Of a DNA stretch of 10,520 nt, positions 2 to 10,520 are shown in pieces. A program made the position numbers and the translations under genes. Position 1 is the stretch's first letter, and each line of letters begins with the position of its first letter. The stretch lies in contig CAXGWI010000127.1 in the NCBI GenBank assembly GCA_964013405.1, positions 1 through 10,520 on the forward strand, given 5' to 3'. The DNA comes from an uncultured Myxococcales bacterium (GTDB lineage Bacteria; Myxococcota; UBA4151). The notes beneath the pieces were generated by a model. The model saw only the letters and a list, made by a program, of their open reading frames with translations, ran no database searches and was not told where the DNA came from.

Positions 2-448
2 CCCAAACTTTGCCAGCTGGATTCGAATGCGAGCTCGAAAAAAGAGGTCATTCGAGCCATTGCGAATCGCTTCGTTGAAACCCATGGCGGGAGTCGGGCC
101 GAGCTCGAAGAAGCCTTTTGGTATCGAGAGCGTCAGCAGACGACCTATTTGGGTGGCGGTATTGGTCTGCCCTGGGCCAGCGCTTCTGGGATGGAGGAGA
201 CTCGCTTAGGGGTCATGCGGCTTGAGACCCCCTTGAGGGTGCCGGATCAAAAGGATGAGATGGCCGATTTGTTCCTATTCACGGTGGGGCCGGCACCGGA
301 CCACCATGTCCATGAGGCCCTGATCGAGGCCTTGCGCTTAGAGATCAATGAAACCGACTTGGCGGCGCGATTGCGAAAGGCTGAGGATGTGGGTGAGGTT
401 CGTCGGATCCTTGAGGAGTGCGCCCAGCTGATCGGGCAACGTGCCTGA
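2..448 (+). CDS. PTS EIIA type-2 (mannitol/fructose/Ntr-like) domain protein, 5'-truncated; phospho-His replaced by Trp; possibly the C-terminal domain of a larger protein
   Basis: The frame of the listed 149..448 ORF is open back to base 2: PKLCQLDSNASSKKEVIRAIANRFVETHGGSRAELEEAFWYRERQQTTYLGGGIGLPWAS...RLETPLRVPDQKDEMADLFLFTVGP...LAARLRKAEDVGEVRRIL. This matches the EIIA pattern 'SK.E.I.....RE...T..G.GIA.PH' and its C-terminal 'L..A....E...IL' helix. Confidence 0.8.
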   Translation, partial: PKLCQLDSNASSKKEVIRAIANRFVETHGGSRAELEEAFWYRERQQTTYLGGGIGLPWASASGMEETRLGVMRLETPLRVPDQKDEMADLFLFTVGPAPDHHVHEALIEALRLEINETDLAARLRKAEDVGEVRRILEECAQLIGQRA

Positions 449-1262
449 ACTCCCGGAGGTTGAGACCTGCCGGGCCGCGTTGGCCCCGCTCTTAAGCCAG
501 GCCCGGGTGGGTGTCTTTCAACGCAGCGACAAAGACTTGCGCTTTCCCTGGCCGGCGCCCGAGGACCTCAAGCGGCTCGAGGGGCGGCGGATCGAGGGGG
601 TTCGACGGCGGGGAAAATACCTCATCATCTCCATGGGGGATCATCATCTCCTCGTTCACCTTGGCATGAGCGGGCAGGTATTTTTTGGTGCGAGCAGCGA
701 GCCTTGGCTGCCCCACGAGCACTGGCGCTTGCGGGTCGACGACCAGTTACTGCGCTATCGAGACCCCCGTCGGTTTGGATTTTTACAACTCTATATAGGC
801 CCCCGGCCCGAAGCCCACGAGCGGCTTGTTCACCTCGGGCCAGAACCCCTCTGCCAAGACAGCTTCAACACAAGCTATCTTCACTCGGTCTGTAGGGGCT
901 CTAAACGCCCGATCAAATCCTTGATTATGGACGGGACCGTGGTGGTGGGCGTGGGGAACATCTATGCCAGTGAAGCCTTGTATCGGGCCGGCATCCAGCC
1001 CTTTAGGAGAGCCGGCGCGATTGCGACCCATCGGCTCGATGGCCTTGTCGTGGGGATTCGAGCGGTCTTGGAAGCGGCGATCGCCGCGGGGGGCACGACC
1101 CTCAAAGACTTCCAGAATGTGGAGGGCAACCCAGGGTACTTTCGCCGAGAGCTCGCGGTGTACGGCCGCGCCGGCGCCCCCTGTCGGCGCTGCCCAGGGA
1201 CCATTCGCCAACGAACCCTGAGCAGCCGGGCAACTTATTGGTGCCCGAACTGCCAGCGCTGA
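441..1262 (+). CDS. mutM: Formamidopyrimidine-DNA glycosylase / AP lyase (Fpg)
   Basis: N-terminal catalytic PELPEVE, RRGKYL, HLGMSG, DPRRFG, LGPEP, H2TH motif GVGNIYASE and C-terminal zinc finger CRRC...CPNCQ. The GTG start overlaps the upstream ORF by 8 bp (GTGCCTGA). Confidence 0.97.
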   Translation: MPELPEVETCRAALAPLLSQARVGVFQRSDKDLRFPWPAPEDLKRLEGRRIEGVRRRGKYLIISMGDHHLLVHLGMSGQVFFGASSEPWLPHEHWRLRVDDQLLRYRDPRRFGFLQLYIGPRPEAHERLVHLGPEPLCQDSFNTSYLHSVCRGSKRPIKSLIMDGTVVVGVGNIYASEALYRAGIQPFRRAGAIATHRLDGLVVGIRAVLEAAIAAGGTTLKDFQNVEGNPGYFRRELAVYGRAGAPCRRCPGTIRQRTLSSRATYWCPNCQR

Positions 1263-1273
1263 GCCCGGCTCAG
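1259..1273. repeat. Perfect 15-bp palindrome CTGAGCC-C-GGCTCAG containing both convergent stop codons
   Basis: Read directly. The mutM TGA (1260-1262) and the minus-strand TGA (1272-1270) are symmetric parts of the two arms. No U-tract on either side. Confidence 0.75.
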
Positions 1274-1362
1274 GCCGTCCGGCGCCGCCGCAAGCCAAAC
1301 ATCGCGAGGAAGCACAGCAAGCCAAGGGCTGAGCCCGCATCCAATTGGTCGCAGGCACAACC
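1270..1362 (-). other. MYXO-CTERM-like C-terminal sorting signal (GCACDQLDAGSALGLLCFLAMFGLRRRRTA)
   Basis: G-C-x-C motif, short spacer, transmembrane segment and Arg cluster at the extreme C-terminus, preceded by Pro-rich DAG linkers. Confidence 0.85.
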
Positions 1363-4300
1363 GGCACCCGGTGCCGTGGGCGGAGCCAAGGGTCCGGCAT
1401 CGGGGGCATCGCCGCGAATACAAATACGGACCGCTGGGCGGATCTCGGCGCAGGTCAACTGATAGCCACTGGGGCAATCAGCCACCGTGTTACATTCTTG
1501 GGTGCAATAGGGCTCGGAGTCATCGGTATTGCAAATCAGCCCACCACCACAGTCGAGATCATTCTGACACTCGCCCGCCGGACCCGCATCCACTGGGCCC
1601 GGTCCCGCATCGGGCCGAATCGGGCCGAGGTCTGTCCAGGCTCGGAGTTTGTATTCCGGGACGGTTTGACCGTCGGCGCTGCGAACGACGATGGCGTAGG
1701 TGCCTTCCTGCAGCGGTAGCGTGGTCCCATTGCCGTTGGCGCCATCGAGGGCGATGTCGAGCAGGTTGACTGGACCCGCATCCCCCGTCGGTTCATTGTC
1801 GATGACTTGCACATCGAGAGCGCCAGCCAGGCCGAGGAGCCCCACATTCAGCACATCTTCACGGACGAGGGTGAACTTGACGAAGTCGACGTCGTCCGGG
1901 TGGTGAATATTGTGAACCTGCGCATGGTTGGCATCGAAGTTGTCGGCGATAAAGCTCCCTGTGGCCCAGTCATTGTCCTCTTCATAGACGTCTGGCTCAA
2001 GCCCGACCAGGCCGTGCCCGGCCCGCAGGAGGAGGGTGATGCAGTTGTTATCCTCATCGGTTTCATCCACCTGATCGCCCGCATCGGCGCAGAGGGTAAT
2101 CACCTGATCATTGCTGGTGGCCTGGAGGACGTTCCCGGGGGATGTGCAGGTGGCTGAGCGATGGAAGCGGCTATCCAGTGCGCGCACGTTGCAGGTGCTA
2201 AAGATCTCCCCATCGGCTCGCATTTCTAAGCTGGTCGCATCCACCTGGGCATCGCCGGTGTACATGACCTGAACCCGGAGCGTGACGAAGTCATCGGTCT
2301 GGGGAAGATCTGGTGAGATTCGTGGCGCCCGTAGCCAAAGGTCATTCTGGTCTGGAATGGGGTTACCCACCTCGAATTCCATCTCGGCACAGTTGTCTTC
2401 CTCATCGGTTTCCTCGACCGCGTTGTCTGGATCCACACAGGCCCGCAGGCGGTGGGACCCTTCTTCGGCGATGGGTGTCATCTCGACACTGTTACAGTAG
2501 TGGCTCCGCCCGGGCGTGAGGGCAGGCACATCACAGGCGCTGTCTTCCACATCGTTGACACTGAGTTGGATGGTGGTCGGCGTCGAGTTGATGTTGCCCT
2601 GGTTCACCACTGCAATGCGGGTGGAGAACTCGGCATCGGGCTCGGGCCGCTCGGGCGAGACCGATAGGTTCTGCAACAGGTAGTTATGTTGGACGCCGCC
2701 CTCGAGGACTTCGGTCTCGAGGCTGATGGTATAGGCCACGGCCCGTTGTTCATCCCGACTAAAGAAGCGGACATAGAAGACACCCGCATCCACCGGGCCA
2801 TAGACGATTTCTGCATCGCCTCGGGAGGTGGAGGCCGCGATTTCTTGACCTCCCTCGCTCATCAATTCGGCATCGACGTCGACACCGACGCCACCGGCCG
2901 TGATGGTCATCGTCCCCGCATCGGCCAGGTTGATCACCACCCAGTCGCTGTCATCGGGCCGGTGGAAGCTGTGGACCTGGTCTTCGTCGGCAATCAGCTC
3001 CGTGGCGTTCTCCGCATCGTTGTCAGGTTCGTATTCGTCGCCACCCCAGACCATGCGCTCGAGGCTGCTGCAGTTGTCGTTCTCGTCCCGTTCATCGACG
3101 AGCCCATCGGGATCGACGCAGACCTGCAGCGCCCGTTCACCGGCGATCATCCCGCCGGGGACGGCCACTTCGCATTCGTGGCTCGCGCCGCTCTCCAACT
3201 CGGGCACCGCACATTCGCCCCGGGTTTCGTCGTCGATGGACAAGCGAGCGAGGCTTGCTTCGCTGACACCCGCATCATTGGCGTTGCTGACGGTGAAGGT
3301 CGTGGTGAAGGCTTCTCCAGCCTCTGGTTCGTTTGGCACGAGGGCAAAGCCGCCCACGGAGAGGTTGGGTGGCCGGTCGGCCAGGCGAATGGCACTCAAG
3401 CTTAAGCGGTAGCGTTCCGCCGCTGCACCCCGGGCCCGACTGACCCGAGCGTAATAGGTCCCCGGCTGGAGCTCGGTGATGATGCGGCTGAAGGGGGACA
3501 CACCGCCATTGTCATTTTGCGCCAACTGCTGGCCATCCGCGTCTTGAAGCACGAGGCGGGTGTCATAGGAGTCCCCCTCTTCAACGGGCAGCGTGGCGAT
3601 GGTGACCTCCGATGCCTCGTTGATGAAGAAGCGGACGAAATCTTGATCGTCGTTATTGTGAAGATTGTGGTCCTGAGATTCACCGGCGTTAATGATCGTG
3701 GCCGTTGCCCGGTCGTTGTCCGGTTCGTATTCATCGACATTCTCAATGGTGAATGTCACCTCAGAGCAGTTGTTGTCTTCGTCGATCTCCACCACCTCCT
3801 CGTTGCCATCGGCGCAGACGGCCACGGTGTGGTCACCCCCTTCAAAGCGGAGCCCATTGACCATGCATACACCCACAGCGTTGCCTGCGAGGGGAGTCAC
3901 CTGACAGTTACCCAGTACCTCTTCTCCCTCGGAAAGGGTCACGGTGGAGCCGGCAGCAGCATCGGTGGTGCCATTGAAGACGAGGACCACGAACTGGGTA
4001 TCTCGATCCCGAATCGGCTCTGCCGGATTGAGCAGGACGTTTTGCACCTGGAGGTCGGGGCCGTTGTAGATGGTCACATCGGTGCAGTTGTTTTCTTCGC
4101 TTCGTTCGTCGATCTCGTCGTCAATATCGGCGCAGAAGCGCACTTGGTGACGCCCAGCCGGCGGGGGATCTTGGTCTTCGAAACTGCATTCCGCAGCGCC
4201 GTCGGCGGCCAGTACTTCAACTTCGCATCGAGCGAGAAGTTGGTCATCCAAGTAGAGCCCGGCCTGGGTGACCGGTGTGTCCGGGTTGAAGCGATTGCGT

Positions 4301-6102
4301 ACGGTAGCCGTAGCGCTCCAGCGCACGTCTGCACCGGGATTTGGGGGGTCTAGGACCAAGTCGCGGACCACCATGTCGTAACCGAGCGCCAGGTTCCGTA
4401 CCGCACAGTTGTTCTCTTCGTTGAGCTCTTCCACTGCCTCTGCTGAATCGGCGCAGACTTGGATGTCCGAGCGACCATTCGGGAGCCCTTCGAGATCCTG
4501 CCAAGCGCAGTCGTGGGTTTCTCCCAGGCCGAGCTCTGGGACATCGCAGGTTCCGAGCACCTCATCCCCTCGGCGAAGGGACGCGGTGCTGGCGGCAGCG
4601 GCGTCGTTGTTGGTGTTGACGATGGTGGCGCTGGCACCCCAGACATCGCCCACATCGGGGGAGACTGGGTCCAGGGTGAGCCCCTGGGCTTGGAGGTCGG
4701 GCCCCAGGTTCACAGCCAAGGTTCGGCAGTTGTCGTTTTCATCGTTTTCGAGGACCGCATTGTCCGTATCGGCGCAGACCTCGATGGTATGAGCGCCGAT
4801 GTCCAAGCCAGCGAGCTCCGGCCAACTACAGCTGTGGTTCCGGCCGGGCTCTAGGGCGGGTACGGCACAATCTGCCTGGGCTTCATCGTTGATTCGAAGC
4901 TGGGCCACCAGCTCCGGGGCGTTGGCATTATGGTTGTTGCGTACGGCTGCCGTCAGACCCCAGGTCTGGCCCACCAGGGGTTGGGGATCCATCGTCACCT
5001 CCCCAAGGCCGATGGCGCCGGTGACCATCCGGAGGCTCAGGATGTAGCGCATCTGCGCGTTGTTCCCGAACTCCTCAGTTCGGATGAAGTAGGTGCCGGC
5101 GGCCACGTTGTTGCGGGTGAGGATCGGATGGCCGAAGCCAAAGCCCGCCTGGGTAATCAGTTGCTGGTTTTCGCCGAAGAGCTGGATTCGGCTGTCGCTA
5201 TCGTCGGCGACGACCGGGCGAGTTTGGATGACAAGGTTGGCTTGTCGGTCGAGGGTGAAACGGAAGTAGTCGATATCCTGACCGTTGTTGTGGGTGGTCA
5301 GGACCAAGTCGTCGCCATGGTTGATTTCCGCGGCCTCATCGAAGGTGTTGTTGGGCTCGTAGGCGTCGGGGTCGCCGGCAACGAGGGGTGGTGCGAGGAA
5401 CTCCGCACAATTATCATCCTCATTGAGCTCTCCCACCGCAAAGCCGGCGTCGGCGCAGACTCGGGCCAGGTGGTAGCCCGGAGGCAAGGGGGGCAGATTG
5501 CTCCAGCGGCAGGTGTGGCTCCCATTCCCTGCGAGGGGCGGGACGTTGCAGGGAGCTAGGTTATCACCGGCCACTTGGAGGCTGGCGCTGGTGCTATCCA
5601 CAGGTCCAGCGTTGGCATTGATGATGTCGATGGCCAGTCCCCAGGTTTGGCCGGGCTGGGGGGCCGGACCGAATTCCGGTGTCCCCACTCGCAACTCGCC
5701 CTCGATGAGATTTACTCGCAGGTTGTAGCTGATGTTCGCGTTGTTCCCGAACTCGTCGACCTTCAAATAGTAGGTTCCGGGCGCCATCGTGTCCCGCTGG
5801 ATTCGGCTGAACAGGCCAGCGCCGCCATCATCGTTGTACTCGATCTGAGCTTGGTTCTCGCCGTAGAGCCACAGCCGGGAATCCCCGGCCTGGCCAAAGG
5901 TCTCGATAACGACGGGGCCGGCCACTTCCACATCGAAGGTGTAGTAGTCGACGTCGGCACCATTACCATGGATCGTCGCCGCCAAGGGCTGGCCGGGCGT
6001 GATGGGTGAAGCGGTGTCGAAACTGTTGTTCGGCTCATGGGCGTCTTGGGCTTGGGCGAGACCGCCGAGCAAAAGGACCATCGCTGCAGAGAGCTTTTTC
6101 AT
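1270..6102 (-). CDS. Large secreted, surface-anchored multidomain protein (~1610 aa): signal peptide, 5 PPC-like and 8 CARDB-like domains, Cys-rich module, MYXO-CTERM-type sorting tail
   Basis: Signal peptide MKKLSAAMVLLLGGLAQA, with AGGAG 8 nt before the ATG at 6102 (preferred to the GTG at 6111, which lies inside the SD). Five D-x-[YH]-E-x-[ND]-N...D-x-D-[YFW]...G-[TV]-[YF] modules (PPC-like). Eight modules ending C-[AV]-D...E..E.[ND]-N-C (CARDB-like). C-terminus GCAC, hydrophobic helix, RRRR. Confidence 0.9.
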   Translation of the reverse strand: MKKLSAAMVLLLGGLAQAQDAHEPNNSFDTASPITPGQPLAATIHGNGADVDYYTFDVEVAGPVVIETFGQAGDSRLWLYGENQAQIEYNDDGGAGLFSRIQRDTMAPGTYYLKVDEFGNNANISYNLRVNLIEGELRVGTPEFGPAPQPGQTWGLAIDIINANAGPVDSTSASLQVAGDNLAPCNVPPLAGNGSHTCRWSNLPPLPPGYHLARVCADAGFAVGELNEDDNCAEFLAPPLVAGDPDAYEPNNTFDEAAEINHGDDLVLTTHNNGQDIDYFRFTLDRQANLVIQTRPVVADDSDSRIQLFGENQQLITQAGFGFGHPILTRNNVAAGTYFIRTEEFGNNAQMRYILSLRMVTGAIGLGEVTMDPQPLVGQTWGLTAAVRNNHNANAPELVAQLRINDEAQADCAVPALEPGRNHSCSWPELAGLDIGAHTIEVCADTDNAVLENDENDNCRTLAVNLGPDLQAQGLTLDPVSPDVGDVWGASATIVNTNNDAAAASTASLRRGDEVLGTCDVPELGLGETHDCAWQDLEGLPNGRSDIQVCADSAEAVEELNEENNCAVRNLALGYDMVVRDLVLDPPNPGADVRWSATATVRNRFNPDTPVTQAGLYLDDQLLARCEVEVLAADGAAECSFEDQDPPPAGRHQVRFCADIDDEIDERSEENNCTDVTIYNGPDLQVQNVLLNPAEPIRDRDTQFVVLVFNGTTDAAAGSTVTLSEGEEVLGNCQVTPLAGNAVGVCMVNGLRFEGGDHTVAVCADGNEEVVEIDEDNNCSEVTFTIENVDEYEPDNDRATATIINAGESQDHNLHNNDDQDFVRFFINEASEVTIATLPVEEGDSYDTRLVLQDADGQQLAQNDNGGVSPFSRIITELQPGTYYARVSRARGAAAERYRLSLSAIRLADRPPNLSVGGFALVPNEPEAGEAFTTTFTVSNANDAGVSEASLARLSIDDETRGECAVPELESGASHECEVAVPGGMIAGERALQVCVDPDGLVDERDENDNCSSLERMVWGGDEYEPDNDAENATELIADEDQVHSFHRPDDSDWVVINLADAGTMTITAGGVGVDVDAELMSEGGQEIAASTSRGDAEIVYGPVDAGVFYVRFFSRDEQRAVAYTISLETEVLEGGVQHNYLLQNLSVSPERPEPDAEFSTRIAVVNQGNINSTPTTIQLSVNDVEDSACDVPALTPGRSHYCNSVEMTPIAEEGSHRLRACVDPDNAVEETDEEDNCAEMEFEVGNPIPDQNDLWLRAPRISPDLPQTDDFVTLRVQVMYTGDAQVDATSLEMRADGEIFSTCNVRALDSRFHRSATCTSPGNVLQATSNDQVITLCADAGDQVDETDEDNNCITLLLRAGHGLVGLEPDVYEEDNDWATGSFIADNFDANHAQVHNIHHPDDVDFVKFTLVREDVLNVGLLGLAGALDVQVIDNEPTGDAGPVNLLDIALDGANGNGTTLPLQEGTYAIVVRSADGQTVPEYKLRAWTDLGPIRPDAGPGPVDAGPAGECQNDLDCGGGLICNTDDSEPYCTQECNTVADCPSGYQLTCAEIRPAVRICIRGDAPDAGPLAPPTAPGAGCACDQLDAGSALGLLCFLAMFGLRRRRTA

Positions 6103-6110
6103 GCTCATCA

Positions 6111-6127
6111 CTCCTGTTTAACAGGAG
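6111..6127. promoter_or_regulatory. Perfect 17-bp palindrome CTCCTGTT-T-AACAGGAG covering the Shine-Dalgarno of the giant gene (candidate operator or RBS-occluding hairpin)
   Basis: 8-bp arms with a 1-bp centre. On the minus-strand mRNA it reads CUCCUGUUAAACAGGAG, whose 3' AGGAG is the SD. The palindrome is certain; its function is inferred. Confidence 0.6.
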
Positions 6128-6130
6128 GGG

Positions 6131-6158
6131 ATTAAACCCACTTTGCCGGGCGGCGCAA
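6131..6158 (-). promoter_or_regulatory. Putative sigma70-type promoter for the giant gene (TTGCGC-N16-TTTAAT)
   Basis: Minus strand: -35 TTGCGC at 6158-6153, 16-nt spacer, -10 TTTAAT at 6136-6131 (5/6 match to TATAAT) in an AT-rich patch of a GC-rich sequence. Confidence 0.4.
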
Positions 6159-6160
6159 CG

Positions 6161-6177
6161 CACAAGCTAAGCTTGTG
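6161..6177. repeat. Perfect 17-bp palindrome CACAAGCT-A-AGCTTGTG overlapping the acyltransferase stop codon
   Basis: 8-bp arms with a 1-bp centre, read directly. It lies immediately upstream of the putative -35 box. Confidence 0.6.
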
Positions 6178-6895
6178 GTGGACTTTTAAGGCTCTGGGCG
6201 ACGCAATCTGCGGCCCGATCTTTGAGTTCGAGCCGGTCTCCTTTACCCAGACCCTGGGTCTGCAAAGGGGGCAGGAAGCGCAAAGTGACCTCACCACCTG
6301 CTCGCGGCAGCAGTTGGTTGGGTGGCCAGCAATCACTGGTTCCGATGACAGCGATCGGCTGGACCGGCACTTGGGCGGCGACCGCCAGCGCGAAGGCGCC
6401 CATACGCCAGGGCAGAGGCGGCGCGTCTGGTAAGGAGCGGGTCCCTTCCGGGAAGAAGAGTACCTTCGCGTTGGAGTTGCGCACCTGCTCCTCCGCCTGG
6501 AGCACCGCAGAGCGCCCAGAGCGTCGGCTGGAGCGGCGTACGAAGATGTGACCAACGCTCCACATACCGATACTGATGGGGACCAGGGCCATCAGCTCCA
6601 TCTTGGCGATAAAGCGTACATCGCCTCGAAGCGCACTTATCAGGACGAAGATATCCAGATTACTGCGGTGGTTGGCCACCACGATACATGGGCCTTCGGG
6701 GAGGCGGTCTCGATCCTCGATACGAAGCCGGACTCCAAAGAGCCAGACGGTGATCCTTGCCCAGACCCGTTGGATGGTCAGTTGGGAGCGGTTACCACGC
6801 CCGCCCAGTGGCAGTGCGAGGAGGCAGAGCATCGTGGCGAGGGCGCCACCGAAGAAAGCCCACAGCAGGGCGACAAACCCGCGCAGCCAAGCCAT
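6167..6895 (-). CDS. plsC: 1-acyl-sn-glycerol-3-phosphate (lysophospholipid) acyltransferase, PlsC family
   Basis: Catalytic NHRSNLD (NHx4D), FIAKMEL, GHIFVRR, FFPEGTRS, GAFALA, VPVQPI and an N-terminal hydrophobic helix. An in-frame TAG directly before the ATG means the start cannot lie further upstream. Confidence 0.92.
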   Translation of the reverse strand: MAWLRGFVALLWAFFGGALATMLCLLALPLGGRGNRSQLTIQRVWARITVWLFGVRLRIEDRDRLPEGPCIVVANHRSNLDIFVLISALRGDVRFIAKMELMALVPISIGMWSVGHIFVRRSSRRSGRSAVLQAEEQVRNSNAKVLFFPEGTRSLPDAPPLPWRMGAFALAVAAQVPVQPIAVIGTSDCWPPNQLLPRAGGEVTLRFLPPLQTQGLGKGDRLELKDRAADCVAQSLKSPPQA

Positions 6896-9450: not shown

Positions 9451-10518
9451 CTAACCCACCTTTAAGCCCGCCCCAGCGATCTTTTCGATCAATTCTGGGC
9501 AGGCTTGGTGGAGATCCGCCACCAAGCCATAATCGGCCACTTGAAAGATAGGCGCTTCCGGGTCCTTATTGATGGCGACGATGGTTTTTGAACCCTTCAT
9601 CCCGGCGACGTGCTGAATGGCACCCGAGATTCCACAAGCGATATAGAGTTTGGGGGCGACGGTTTTTCCTGTCTGACCCACCTGCCAGTCGTTGGGAACC
9701 CAGTTTGCGTCGACGACAGCTCGACTGGCACCGACGGCACCTCCCAGGCTGTCAGCAAGGTTTTCCACCGGGCTGAAATCAAAGCCGGTTTCTGCGTCAG
9801 CGACACCGCACCCGCGACCGCCCGAAACCACAACATCGGCATCACCAAGGCTGGGGCGGGCACTGACCGTCCCCGAGAACTCGACGAAGCGGGTCTTCGT
9901 GCTGGGTGCTTGGAAGGCGAGGCTTGAGGTCGGACCCTCACCCGGTGCGACCGGGTCGAAGGCTGTGGGTTGAATGGTCAGAGCAAGGCGCGCTCCCTGA
10001 GCCTCCACCGTGGCGATTGCGCTGCCCGCCCAGAGGGCTCGGGTGAAGCGTCGCGGGCCTTCGACCGAGAGGGCTTCGGTCACCATACCCGCGCCGATCG
10101 CTTCTGCGACCCGGGGAAGATAATCTCGAGCCACCGAGCTGGCCGGTGCGACGAGGATGCTCGCCTGACTGGCTGAAGCCGCGGTGAGGGCTGCCGCAAC
10201 ATACAACTCGGCCACAGGCTGTTCGAAGGCACTGTCGGTGATGGTGTGGACGGCATGCACGCCGTCGACAGCCGCCTGCGCCGCGCTTTGCGTGTCTGAG
10301 CCGATGCAGCAGACGTGGAGTTCAACCCCGGCAGCCTGTGCTAATTGGACGGCCGCTGCGAGGGTGGAGCGGGCTGCACCATTGAGTTGCTCACCAGAAA
10401 CCTCGAGGAGCGCCAGGACGTTCGGTCCATCGCCGCCGACTGCAGCTGCTGCAGCTGGTTCCTCCGCAGCTGGTTCCTCCGCAGCTGGTTCCTCCGCAGC
10501 TGGTTCCTCCGCAGCTGG
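9451..10518 (-). CDS. etfA: Electron transfer flavoprotein alpha subunit, 5'-truncated, with an in-frame N-terminal (EEPAA)n extension (possible fusion protein)
   Basis: FAD-binding motifs VVVSGGRG, GASRAVVD, QVGQTGKTVAPKLYIACGISGAIQHVAGM, AINKDPEAPIFQVADYGLVADL. The frame stays open upstream of the listed 10260 start: ...PAAEEPAAAAAVGGDGPNVLALLEVSGEQLNGAARSTLAAAVQLAQAAGVELHVCCIG..., which is the typical first strand and helix of EtfA. Confidence 0.93.
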   Translation of the reverse strand, partial: PAAEEPAAEEPAAEEPAAEEPAAAAAVGGDGPNVLALLEVSGEQLNGAARSTLAAAVQLAQAAGVELHVCCIGSDTQSAAQAAVDGVHAVHTITDSAFEQPVAELYVAAALTAASASQASILVAPASSVARDYLPRVAEAIGAGMVTEALSVEGPRRFTRALWAGSAIATVEAQGARLALTIQPTAFDPVAPGEGPTSSLAFQAPSTKTRFVEFSGTVSARPSLGDADVVVSGGRGCGVADAETGFDFSPVENLADSLGGAVGASRAVVDANWVPNDWQVGQTGKTVAPKLYIACGISGAIQHVAGMKGSKTIVAINKDPEAPIFQVADYGLVADLHQACPELIEKIAGAGLKVG

Positions 10519-10520
10519 TT
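10451..10520. repeat. Perfect 15-bp tandem repeat (GCAGCTGGTTCCTCC)n, 4 full copies plus 10 bp, running off the window; encodes (EEPAA)n on the minus strand
   Basis: Identical units start at 10451, 10466, 10481, 10496 and 10511 (partial). Confidence 0.97.

Follow-up and report, generated by a model that had tools for sequence, protein, structure and literature searches.

A gene on contig CAXGWI010000127.1 (C127) of an uncultured Myxococcales bacterium (GenBank assembly GCA_964013405.1) raises a question: what does a long protein made of PPC-like and CARDB modules do when it carries no recognizable enzyme? The contig, 10,520 nucleotides long, is the whole window analyzed here, and its parent genome is 3.9 Mb and 94% complete. 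The gene is an intact open reading frame (ORF) at 6102..1270 on the minus strand, with a product of 1610 aa (P0001). The original prediction, made from the letters of this DNA, described a giant surface adhesin or scaffold presenting five binding modules on a stalk. We find that a stalk with one ligand-binding tip, which in this genus consists of two related N-terminal modules, fits the sequences better than five binding modules.

A Shine-Dalgarno GGAG sits 8 nt 5' of the ATG at 6102, and the start at MKK is common to the protein and its sister-species ortholog. The two proteins are 89% identical. Nonsynonymous divergence (dN) between them is 0.074 while synonymous sites are saturated (proportion of differences, pS, 0.77), so this is a real, conserved gene and not a chance ORF. 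It is single-copy and the sole CARDB gene found in the genome. "Giant" holds only in a relative sense, as the ORF ranks 17th by length in its genome. The product is acidic (D+E 17%, K+R 5%). Five short contigs from an RNA-library run lie inside the gene at 99-100% identity, among the matches listed. Since DNA carry-over was uncontrolled and the run was located by this gene, they are no proof of transcription.

Thirteen beta-sandwich modules

Motif positions, Pfam and module alignments gave the order signal peptide, P1, C1, P2, C2, C3, C4, C5, P3, C6, P4, C7, C8, P5, linker, Cys8 module, linker and tail, where P is a PPC-like and C a CARDB module. The chain thus has 13 modules, in exactly the order originally proposed. 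The five PPC starts match D-x-[YH]-E-x-[DN]-N at residues 20, 246, 790, 1022 and 1371, and the eight CARDB ends match C-x-D...E-x-x-E-x-[ND]-N-C. When scanned singly, all eight CARDB modules pass PF07705 with 31-62 bits (cut-off 22.7). The same scan of the PPC-like modules against PF04151 (cut-off 25.9) passed P1 alone, at 29.6 bits. P3, P2 and P5 fell below the cut-off with 24.8, 19 and 17.8 bits, and P4 gave no Pfam match. P4 aligns with P3 at 32% identity (E 1e-12).

All features of the chain lie on the minus strand. The predicted Sec signal peptide (6049..6102, residues 1-18) was read by eye, with AQA before and QD after the cleavage site and no lipobox. P1 (5707..6045, residues 20-132) is the tip module and resembles a collagenase collagen-binding domain (CBD), matching ColH s3 at E 2.7e-11. 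C1 (5374..5706), which has four Cys and scores 31 bits, forms with P1 an extra PPC-CARDB pair specific to this genus. The second tip-type module, P2 (5023..5373), is 44% identical to P1. Four tandem CARDB modules with four Cys each follow, C2-C5 (3742..5022), at 44-51 bits apiece. Then come P3 (3388..3741), an internal PPC-like module with E-x-D, H-x-x-H and D-x-D motifs, C6 (3046..3387, 54 bits), and P4 (2695..3045), again internal and with H-x-x-H. C7-C8 (2008..2694) score 62 and 41 bits and precede P5 (1633..2007), an internal PPC-like module with H-x-x-H and a DAG loop.

AlphaFold2 models were made of P2-C5 (mean predicted local distance difference test, pLDDT, 85; predicted template modelling score, pTM, 0.43) and of P3-Cys8 (pLDDT 78.7, pTM 0.40), which together hold 11 of the 13 modules. 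The modelled modules are all-beta, and no helical domain was seen. In VIA-align comparisons, P2, P3 and P4 match the ColG and ColH collagen-binding domains (Z 13.5-14.4, root mean square deviation (rmsd) 2.0-2.4 Å). P2 aligns with a ColG domain at Z 13.9, P3 with ColH s3 (3jqw) at Z 13.9 and rmsd 2.2 Å over 110 residues, and P4 with ColG s3b (1nqd) at Z 14.4 and rmsd 2.0 Å over 105 residues. P3 also matches PPC clusters of the ESM Atlas at 0.95. C4-C7 match the CARDB structures 2l0d and 3idu at Z 13.3-14.1 (C4 and C5 against 3idu and 2l0d, 14.0 and 14.1; C6 against 2l0d, 13.8; C7 against 3idu, 13.3). The title of 3idu reads "in complex with di-metal ions". Foldseek searches with the two multi-domain models were uninformative: every match was a generic protein of tandem beta-sandwiches, with a TM-score of at most 0.24 normalized by query. 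The proposed folds therefore hold for all eight CARDB modules by Pfam and for C4-C7 also by fold, for P1 by Pfam and for P2-P4 by fold. P5 is a probable PPC member, judged by its 17.8 bits, its start motif and an all-beta model.

The closest relatives by sequence and fold are thus the ColH and ColG domains s3, s3a and s3b (3jqw, 1nqd, 5iku), with which the acidic N-terminal E-x-N/D-N and the D-x-D align. The protein differs from the collagenases in that it lacks an M9 peptidase, its modules are N-terminal or internal, the Tyr962 position is non-aromatic and the internal copies carry H-x-x-H. The CARDB modules are closest in fold to those of the archaeal proteins MA_4588 (2l0d) and PF1109 (3idu, di-metal), sharing an acidic C-terminal loop. 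They differ in having four Cys in nearly all copies and in alternating with PPC modules.

The loop residues D, E, E and N are invariant in all 58 CARDB copies of the family. Four Cys are present in 54 of these copies, while at least four occur in 42 of 760 unrelated ones. Cys1 and Cys2 are lost jointly in 4/58 copies and never singly, which fits a Cys1-Cys2 disulfide and two disulfides per module. The PDAGP linker and Cys8 module (1414..1632, the Cys8 module being residues 1510-1563) are the best conserved part of the chain, at 57-63% identity between genera and 98% within. Cys8 scores 19.1 bits with TIGR04201, below the cut-off of 25, and much of its model is under pLDDT 50. A search of PDB sequences with Cys8 gave nothing significant (best E 0.19). 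Weak relatives were found in 17 of 145 other genomes of the phylum and in one matrixin-like protein of the same genome.

Profiles built from the modules themselves tile 94% of the chain, with a largest gap of 44 residues. Such profiles are circular as evidence of homology and valid for the argument that there is no room for anything else. The original claim that there is no catalytic domain agrees with this tiling, with Pfam and NCBIfam (no peptidase family), with a motif scan of the 1610 aa (no HExxH or subtilase motif) and with the fold search. A hidden catalytic domain was looked for and not found in models spanning P2-Cys8, where the fold search bore mainly on P2-C7 and barely probed C8, P5 and Cys8. 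The JGI label "subtilase family serine protease" on two relatives found no support here. No NCBIfam family matched the whole protein. With no peptidase domain found in the chain, it does not belong with the PPC-containing peptidases (S8, M4, M9, M36). Identity between modules is 18-44% and modules cluster by position on trees, which rules out repeat homogenization or an assembly artefact.

Tip and internal PPC modules

The PPC-like modules are of two types. The tip type comprises P1, P2 and the tip PPCs of shorter orthologs, and the internal type comprises P3-P5. The types were compared at three binding-face positions, taken by sequence alignment, and for Tyr970 by spacing only, as the equivalents of the ColG hot-spot residues Tyr970, Tyr994 and Tyr996. 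PMC4356367 describes these residues, along with Tyr962 of ColH as a binding-pocket residue. Of the three positions, two are aromatic in seven of eight tip modules and one in P2 of this genus (g1), while 22 of 24 internal copies have none. The claim of five binding modules is for this reason not supported. No module has more than two of the three aromatics of the collagen-binding hot spot.

The internal modules have a signature of their own. D-x-x-E-x-D, H-x-x-H and D-x-D are invariant in all 24 internal copies, and the E and the D-x-D in all 34 PPC copies. The P3 binding-face strand has invariant Arg residues (R886, R889). Among 591 unrelated PPC-like domains, H-x-x-H occurs in 24 of 66 with E-x-D and in 2 of 162 with E-x-N. 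These counts are not independent, since the H-x-x-H domains come from 6 of 55 proteins.

In the second genus (g2), the tip is also the module that changes fastest. In four of four g2 pairs, its dN is 0.29-0.46, compared to 0.16-0.24 for the whole mature chain. Within species it hardly varies: six sequences of the sister species are identical at all 113 P1 residues, and near-identical g2 sequences show 0-8 differences over 118 residues.

An unrooted tree, on which the CARDB side is unresolved, joins P1 and P2 with the tip PPCs of the short orthologs in a single branch (support 99/97). Six orthologs of about 1390-1400 aa have one N-terminal PPC-CARDB pair, compared to two in g1. Because P1, P2 and the short-form tips share this well-supported branch, the extra pair is likely a duplication of the tip; it may instead have been lost from the short forms. 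The module order has been stable, as modules cluster by position. The most testable novelty of this protein lies in its two kinds of PPC module, tip-type and His-pair.

A possible surface tether and its alternatives

The C-terminal tail (1270..1365) reads GAGCAC-DQLDAG-SALGLLCFLAMFGL-RRRRTA. The published MYXO-CTERM layout consists of a Cys motif, often with two Cys, an uncharged transmembrane (TM) stretch without Pro and an Arg cluster (10.1101/2023.06.07.544157; PMC11980579), and the tail has all three parts. Six of nine orthologous tails score over the TIGR03901 cut-off, and P0002, P0003 and L038 fail. The defining paper states that lineage-specific models are needed (10.1101/2023.06.07.544157). 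A model built from the other tails of this genome, with the tail in question held out, recovered it among 14,569 ORF tails at E 0.013, 1e-4 and 0.0024 over three rounds; two of the seeds are probably spurious ORFs. The tail is therefore classed as MYXO-CTERM-type on orthology and not on its own score, so the anchor first proposed stands by layout, by six of nine orthologs and by the held-out model, and falls short in its own TIGR03901 match. The search for a cognate sorting enzyme was successful. The myxosortase core NF040914 is present in the genome with 113.9 bits and is over the cut-off in 5/6 genomes of the family, and GspD is over its cut-off with 454.9 bits. Tail layout, ortholog scores, the genome tail model and these two genes make surface anchoring likely. 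What was proposed as a secreted, non-catalytic, acidic beta-sandwich stalk thus agrees with the data, including the conserved acidic Ca2+-type motifs.

With about even confidence, we propose that the protein is a 13-module surface tether: a Sec-exported, disulfide-locked, myxosortase-anchored and Ca2+-stiffened adhesin whose tip binds the surface of a particle or prey cell and whose P3-P5 are joints. The N-terminal signal peptide would direct export by Sec, and two disulfides per CARDB and four in the Cys8 module would lock the chain. The Cys-TM-Arg tail would be lipidated and cut by the myxosortase, and the type II secretion system would take the protein to the outer surface. Since the sorting tail would anchor the C-terminus, the free end would be N-terminal. 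Seawater Ca2+ may bind at the acidic starts of the PPC modules and in the E-x-x-E-x-N-N loops of the CARDB modules, holding a rod of roughly 50 nm (estimated as 13 modules of about 4 nm each). The tip PPC, of which this genus has two copies, P2 being partly degenerate, would attach to a protein-rich surface, for example that of a particle, a gel or a prey cell, and P3-P5 would serve as structural joints, not binding heads. The tether would then keep a swimming cell beside its food while separately anchored surface peptidases digest it. Flagellin and PilT genes are present in the genome, as are anchored peptidases, near which a tether would hold food; since these peptidases carry their own anchors, binding module and enzyme would sit on different polypeptides. 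In adhesin extenders described in PMC7493085, Ca2+ in the linkers rigidifies a chain that displays distal ligand-binding domains, and binding of a ColG collagen-binding domain to collagen is blocked by EGTA according to PMC6168687. RTX and Bap extenders, such as the 1,600-aa BapP of P. tunicata (PMC7493085, PMC12153261), would work alike, with tandem acidic beta-sandwiches and a distal module, and BapP is of similar size. Such adhesins are defined by type I export, RTX repeats and an N-terminal retention module. The protein differs from them in its Sec-type N-terminus, its C-terminal TM sorting tail and its domain families; it has no RTX family match, and no type I secretion genes were found in the window.

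Several observations weigh against the tether. The low pTM of both models means that they do not predict a rod shape or rigidity. TIGR03901 gave no match to the protein's own tail at E<=1 to 10. The mapping of the three tyrosines depends on alignment, with Tyr970 placed by spacing. In the P1-ColH alignment, P1 has Asp at the position of ColH Tyr962, and no tip module has an aromatic residue there; ColH-like binding to collagen is therefore not expected. In g1, where identity between species is 90-95%, the tip shows no more variation than other modules do. The CARDB loop motif also occurs in 671 of 760 unrelated CARDB copies and, being generic, says little that is specific. Keeping one module order throughout the class implies more constraint than a mere spacer would require.

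It is unlikely, given these data, that all five PPC-like modules bind and make a multivalent adhesin, as first suggested. They share a CBD-like fold or sequence, the two Arg residues on the P3 face could bind acidic polymers, and other modes of collagen binding by PPC domains, also without Ca2+, are reported in PMC6168687. However, nearly all internal copies lack the binding-face aromatics, and the internal modules fall on separate branches with a motif different from that of the tip. A structural or protective layer, for example a spacer, a coat or an anti-grazing brush, seems similarly improbable. It would suit a very acidic, disulfide-rich protein encoded by a single-copy core gene that sits among housekeeping genes in 6/6 class genomes, and there is a precedent in M. 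xanthus, where a FibA fragment with two PPC domains (Protein C) is a dominant spore-coat protein (PMC3236237). Two observations speak against a coat. One is the systematic difference between tip and stalk. The other, which counts only weakly against an abundant coat protein, is codon usage unlike that of ribosomal proteins (log-likelihood ratio, with 13 reference ORFs, at the 48th percentile); the codon adaptation index is at the 88th percentile, but it is confounded by GC content at third codon positions. A more speculative idea, which we consider quite unlikely, is that P3-P5 form an unrecognized His-pair PPC subtype in which the calcium site has been swapped for a transition-metal site, giving a tether that also harvests trace metals or has a cryptic metal-dependent activity. 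If true, this subtype would also account for many of the PPC arrays without enzymes found in other phyla.

A stalk whose internal E-x-D, H-x-x-H and D-x-D modules capture transition metal or are cryptically catalytic is slightly less probable still. The motif is invariant in the internal copies and H-x-x-H tracks E-x-D and not E-x-N in unrelated domains, and the surface copper-binding protein CorA is among the fold matches (Z 9.1). CorA, however, scores well under the CBD matches, and the few source proteins make the His-pair counts dependent on one another. The His residues occupy ColH Gly/Glu positions beside the Ca2+ loop, where they may merely pack it. About as doubtful is a role as a scaffold, gathering secreted enzymes or other PPC proteins as a scaffoldin does, or as an inhibitor whose PPC modules block foreign hydrolases like PliG. 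Fixed, position-specific modules, eighteen other PPC-like proteins and several surface peptidases in the genome would accord with this, and PliG has the same fold (Z 10.2-11.3), which PMC12664993 describes as common to PliG and other regulatory domains. PliG nevertheless ranks under the CBDs, the surface peptidases have their own anchors and the conserved neighborhood holds no partner gene. Least probable of all is a kin-recognition receptor with a polymorphic tip like TraA of M. xanthus. As described in PMC3325183 and PMC11980579, TraA has a comparable layout of signal peptide, N-terminal head, repeat stalk, Cys-rich membrane-proximal module and Cys-TM-Arg (MYXO-CTERM) tail, of which it is the prototype. 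The tip of our protein diverges fastest between g2 species. In contrast to TraA, it has a stalk of PPC and CARDB modules and lacks a PA14 head, a run of TIGR04201 repeats and the polymorphism within species. Neither PA14 nor TIGR04566 matched, and the downstream gene is a convergent mutM, with no traB neighbor. A search for the TraA N-terminal family gave no match in the genome; the control genomes gave none either, which makes this negative no evidence of absence.

Distribution, locus and significance

Full-length orthologs are present in 6/6 genomes of this marine class of Myxococcota, represented in our collection by one family with two genera. Near-identical contigs derive from runs labelled marine metagenome. 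The other genomes of the phylum (n=295, two candidates per genome scored) gave no full-length match; the best scored 58-70 bits over one or two modules, and 16 of the 295 match at E<=1e-15.

A family profile matched 17,674 clusters at E<=0.001. The best 149 of these, P0003 excluded, comprise 48 with PPC only, 91 with CARDB only and 10 with both. In 70 of them, PPC and CARDB cover at least 70% of the sequence; four are family fragments, which leaves 66 non-family arrays. This ranking favors repeat arrays, and some entries may be partial ORFs. Seven non-family matches in the best 149 mix both module types, and none has the family order, the Cys8 module or the tail. Pfam scans of five of the mixed proteins showed an M10 peptidase in one, an FGE-sulfatase domain in another and no catalytic family in the other three. 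The metagenome arrays P0022 (PPC×11), P0122 (PPC×20), P0009 (CARDB×14) and P0134 have the same tandem modules, often without a catalytic domain. P0022 shares the H-x-x-H subtype of P3-P5 in 9 of its 11 modules, and P0085 alternates PPC and CARDB and adds an M10 peptidase.

The same genome has 18 further PPC-like ORFs, all of them without a Pfam peptidase domain. Among its MYXO-CTERM-type proteins (20 scanned of about 28), eight have a peptidase domain and four are Ig, PKD or cadherin arrays without a catalytic family. The missing peptidase, taken earlier as the mark of an unusual system, is thus ordinary: none of these 18 ORFs has one, 66 non-family proteins among the 149 are covered to at least 70% by PPC and/or CARDB modules, and the genome encodes a longer, 2557-aa all-Ig protein. 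That protein (L048, G000:C3:53641-61311) has cadherin-like and PKD Ig repeats and a MYXO-CTERM-type tail, and no catalytic Pfam family was found in it. The eighteen PPC-like proteins (L065-L082) are encoded on contigs C126, C43, C167 (two genes), C31, C27, C182 and others; several have four PPC in tandem, often with DUF4215 Cys-rich repeats, LDL-receptor A or C-type lectin domains. L065 (G000:C14:11809-19473, 2555 codons) has one His-pair PPC module and almost no Pfam annotation. Its codon usage is the third most ribosomal-like of 2300 genes, making it the better candidate for an abundant surface protein. The genome also has eight flagellin N-terminal matches over cut-off and four PilT (G000 C116, C7, C9, C15).

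The gene order etfA, Fe-S oxidoreductase, PilZ, acyltransferase, PPC/CARDB gene and convergent mutM is kept in 6/6 class genomes. An operon partner was ruled out, as none of these neighbors is partner-like. The PPC/CARDB gene and mutM converge with a 7-nt gap (window 1260-1272), and their stop codons overlap in four g2 genomes. A database protein, P0010, is the upstream acyltransferase fused to the N-terminus of our protein with garbled stretches, likely a frameshift artefact.

The upstream region (6111..6177, minus strand) contains putative signals. A promoter-like TT..GC.TTGC...GG(G)T motif with -35/-10-like spacing lies at 6131-6177 and is present upstream in 6/6 genomes (orthologs L004-L008). 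In g1 only, a CACAAGC-N3-GCTTGTG inverted repeat is added at the acyltransferase stop. A 7-bp hairpin at 6111-6127 covers the Shine-Dalgarno sequence and was not seen in g2; the sister species retains six of its pairs, two through G-U changes, in a comparison of two sequences only. A scan for sigma-70 promoters and terminators over 6050-6400 gave no match.

At the start of the contig, window 2-448 encodes a phosphotransferase system EIIA-like domain. It ends an 894-codon ORF in the sister species (G001 L023:5487-8168), the gene continues on contig C21, and a different gene occupies that place in g2. At the other end, the EtfA frame (10440-10520) contains PAAEE tandem repeats, which likely caused the assembly break.

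No published description of the architecture was found among the top-ranked literature matches, a search that did not cover the M. xanthus MYXO-CTERM protein table. The module order is new. Enzyme-free sorted beta-sandwich stalks are familiar, widespread and represented several times in this genome, so the protein does not define a new kind of system. If the proposed tether is right, the protein would serve as a surface marker for an uncultured class of marine Myxococcota with small genomes and would suggest, in concrete terms, how these cells attach. Its PPC modules fall into two types, the tip being variable and the internal His-pair modules conserved, a division that can be tested on single recombinant domains without culture.

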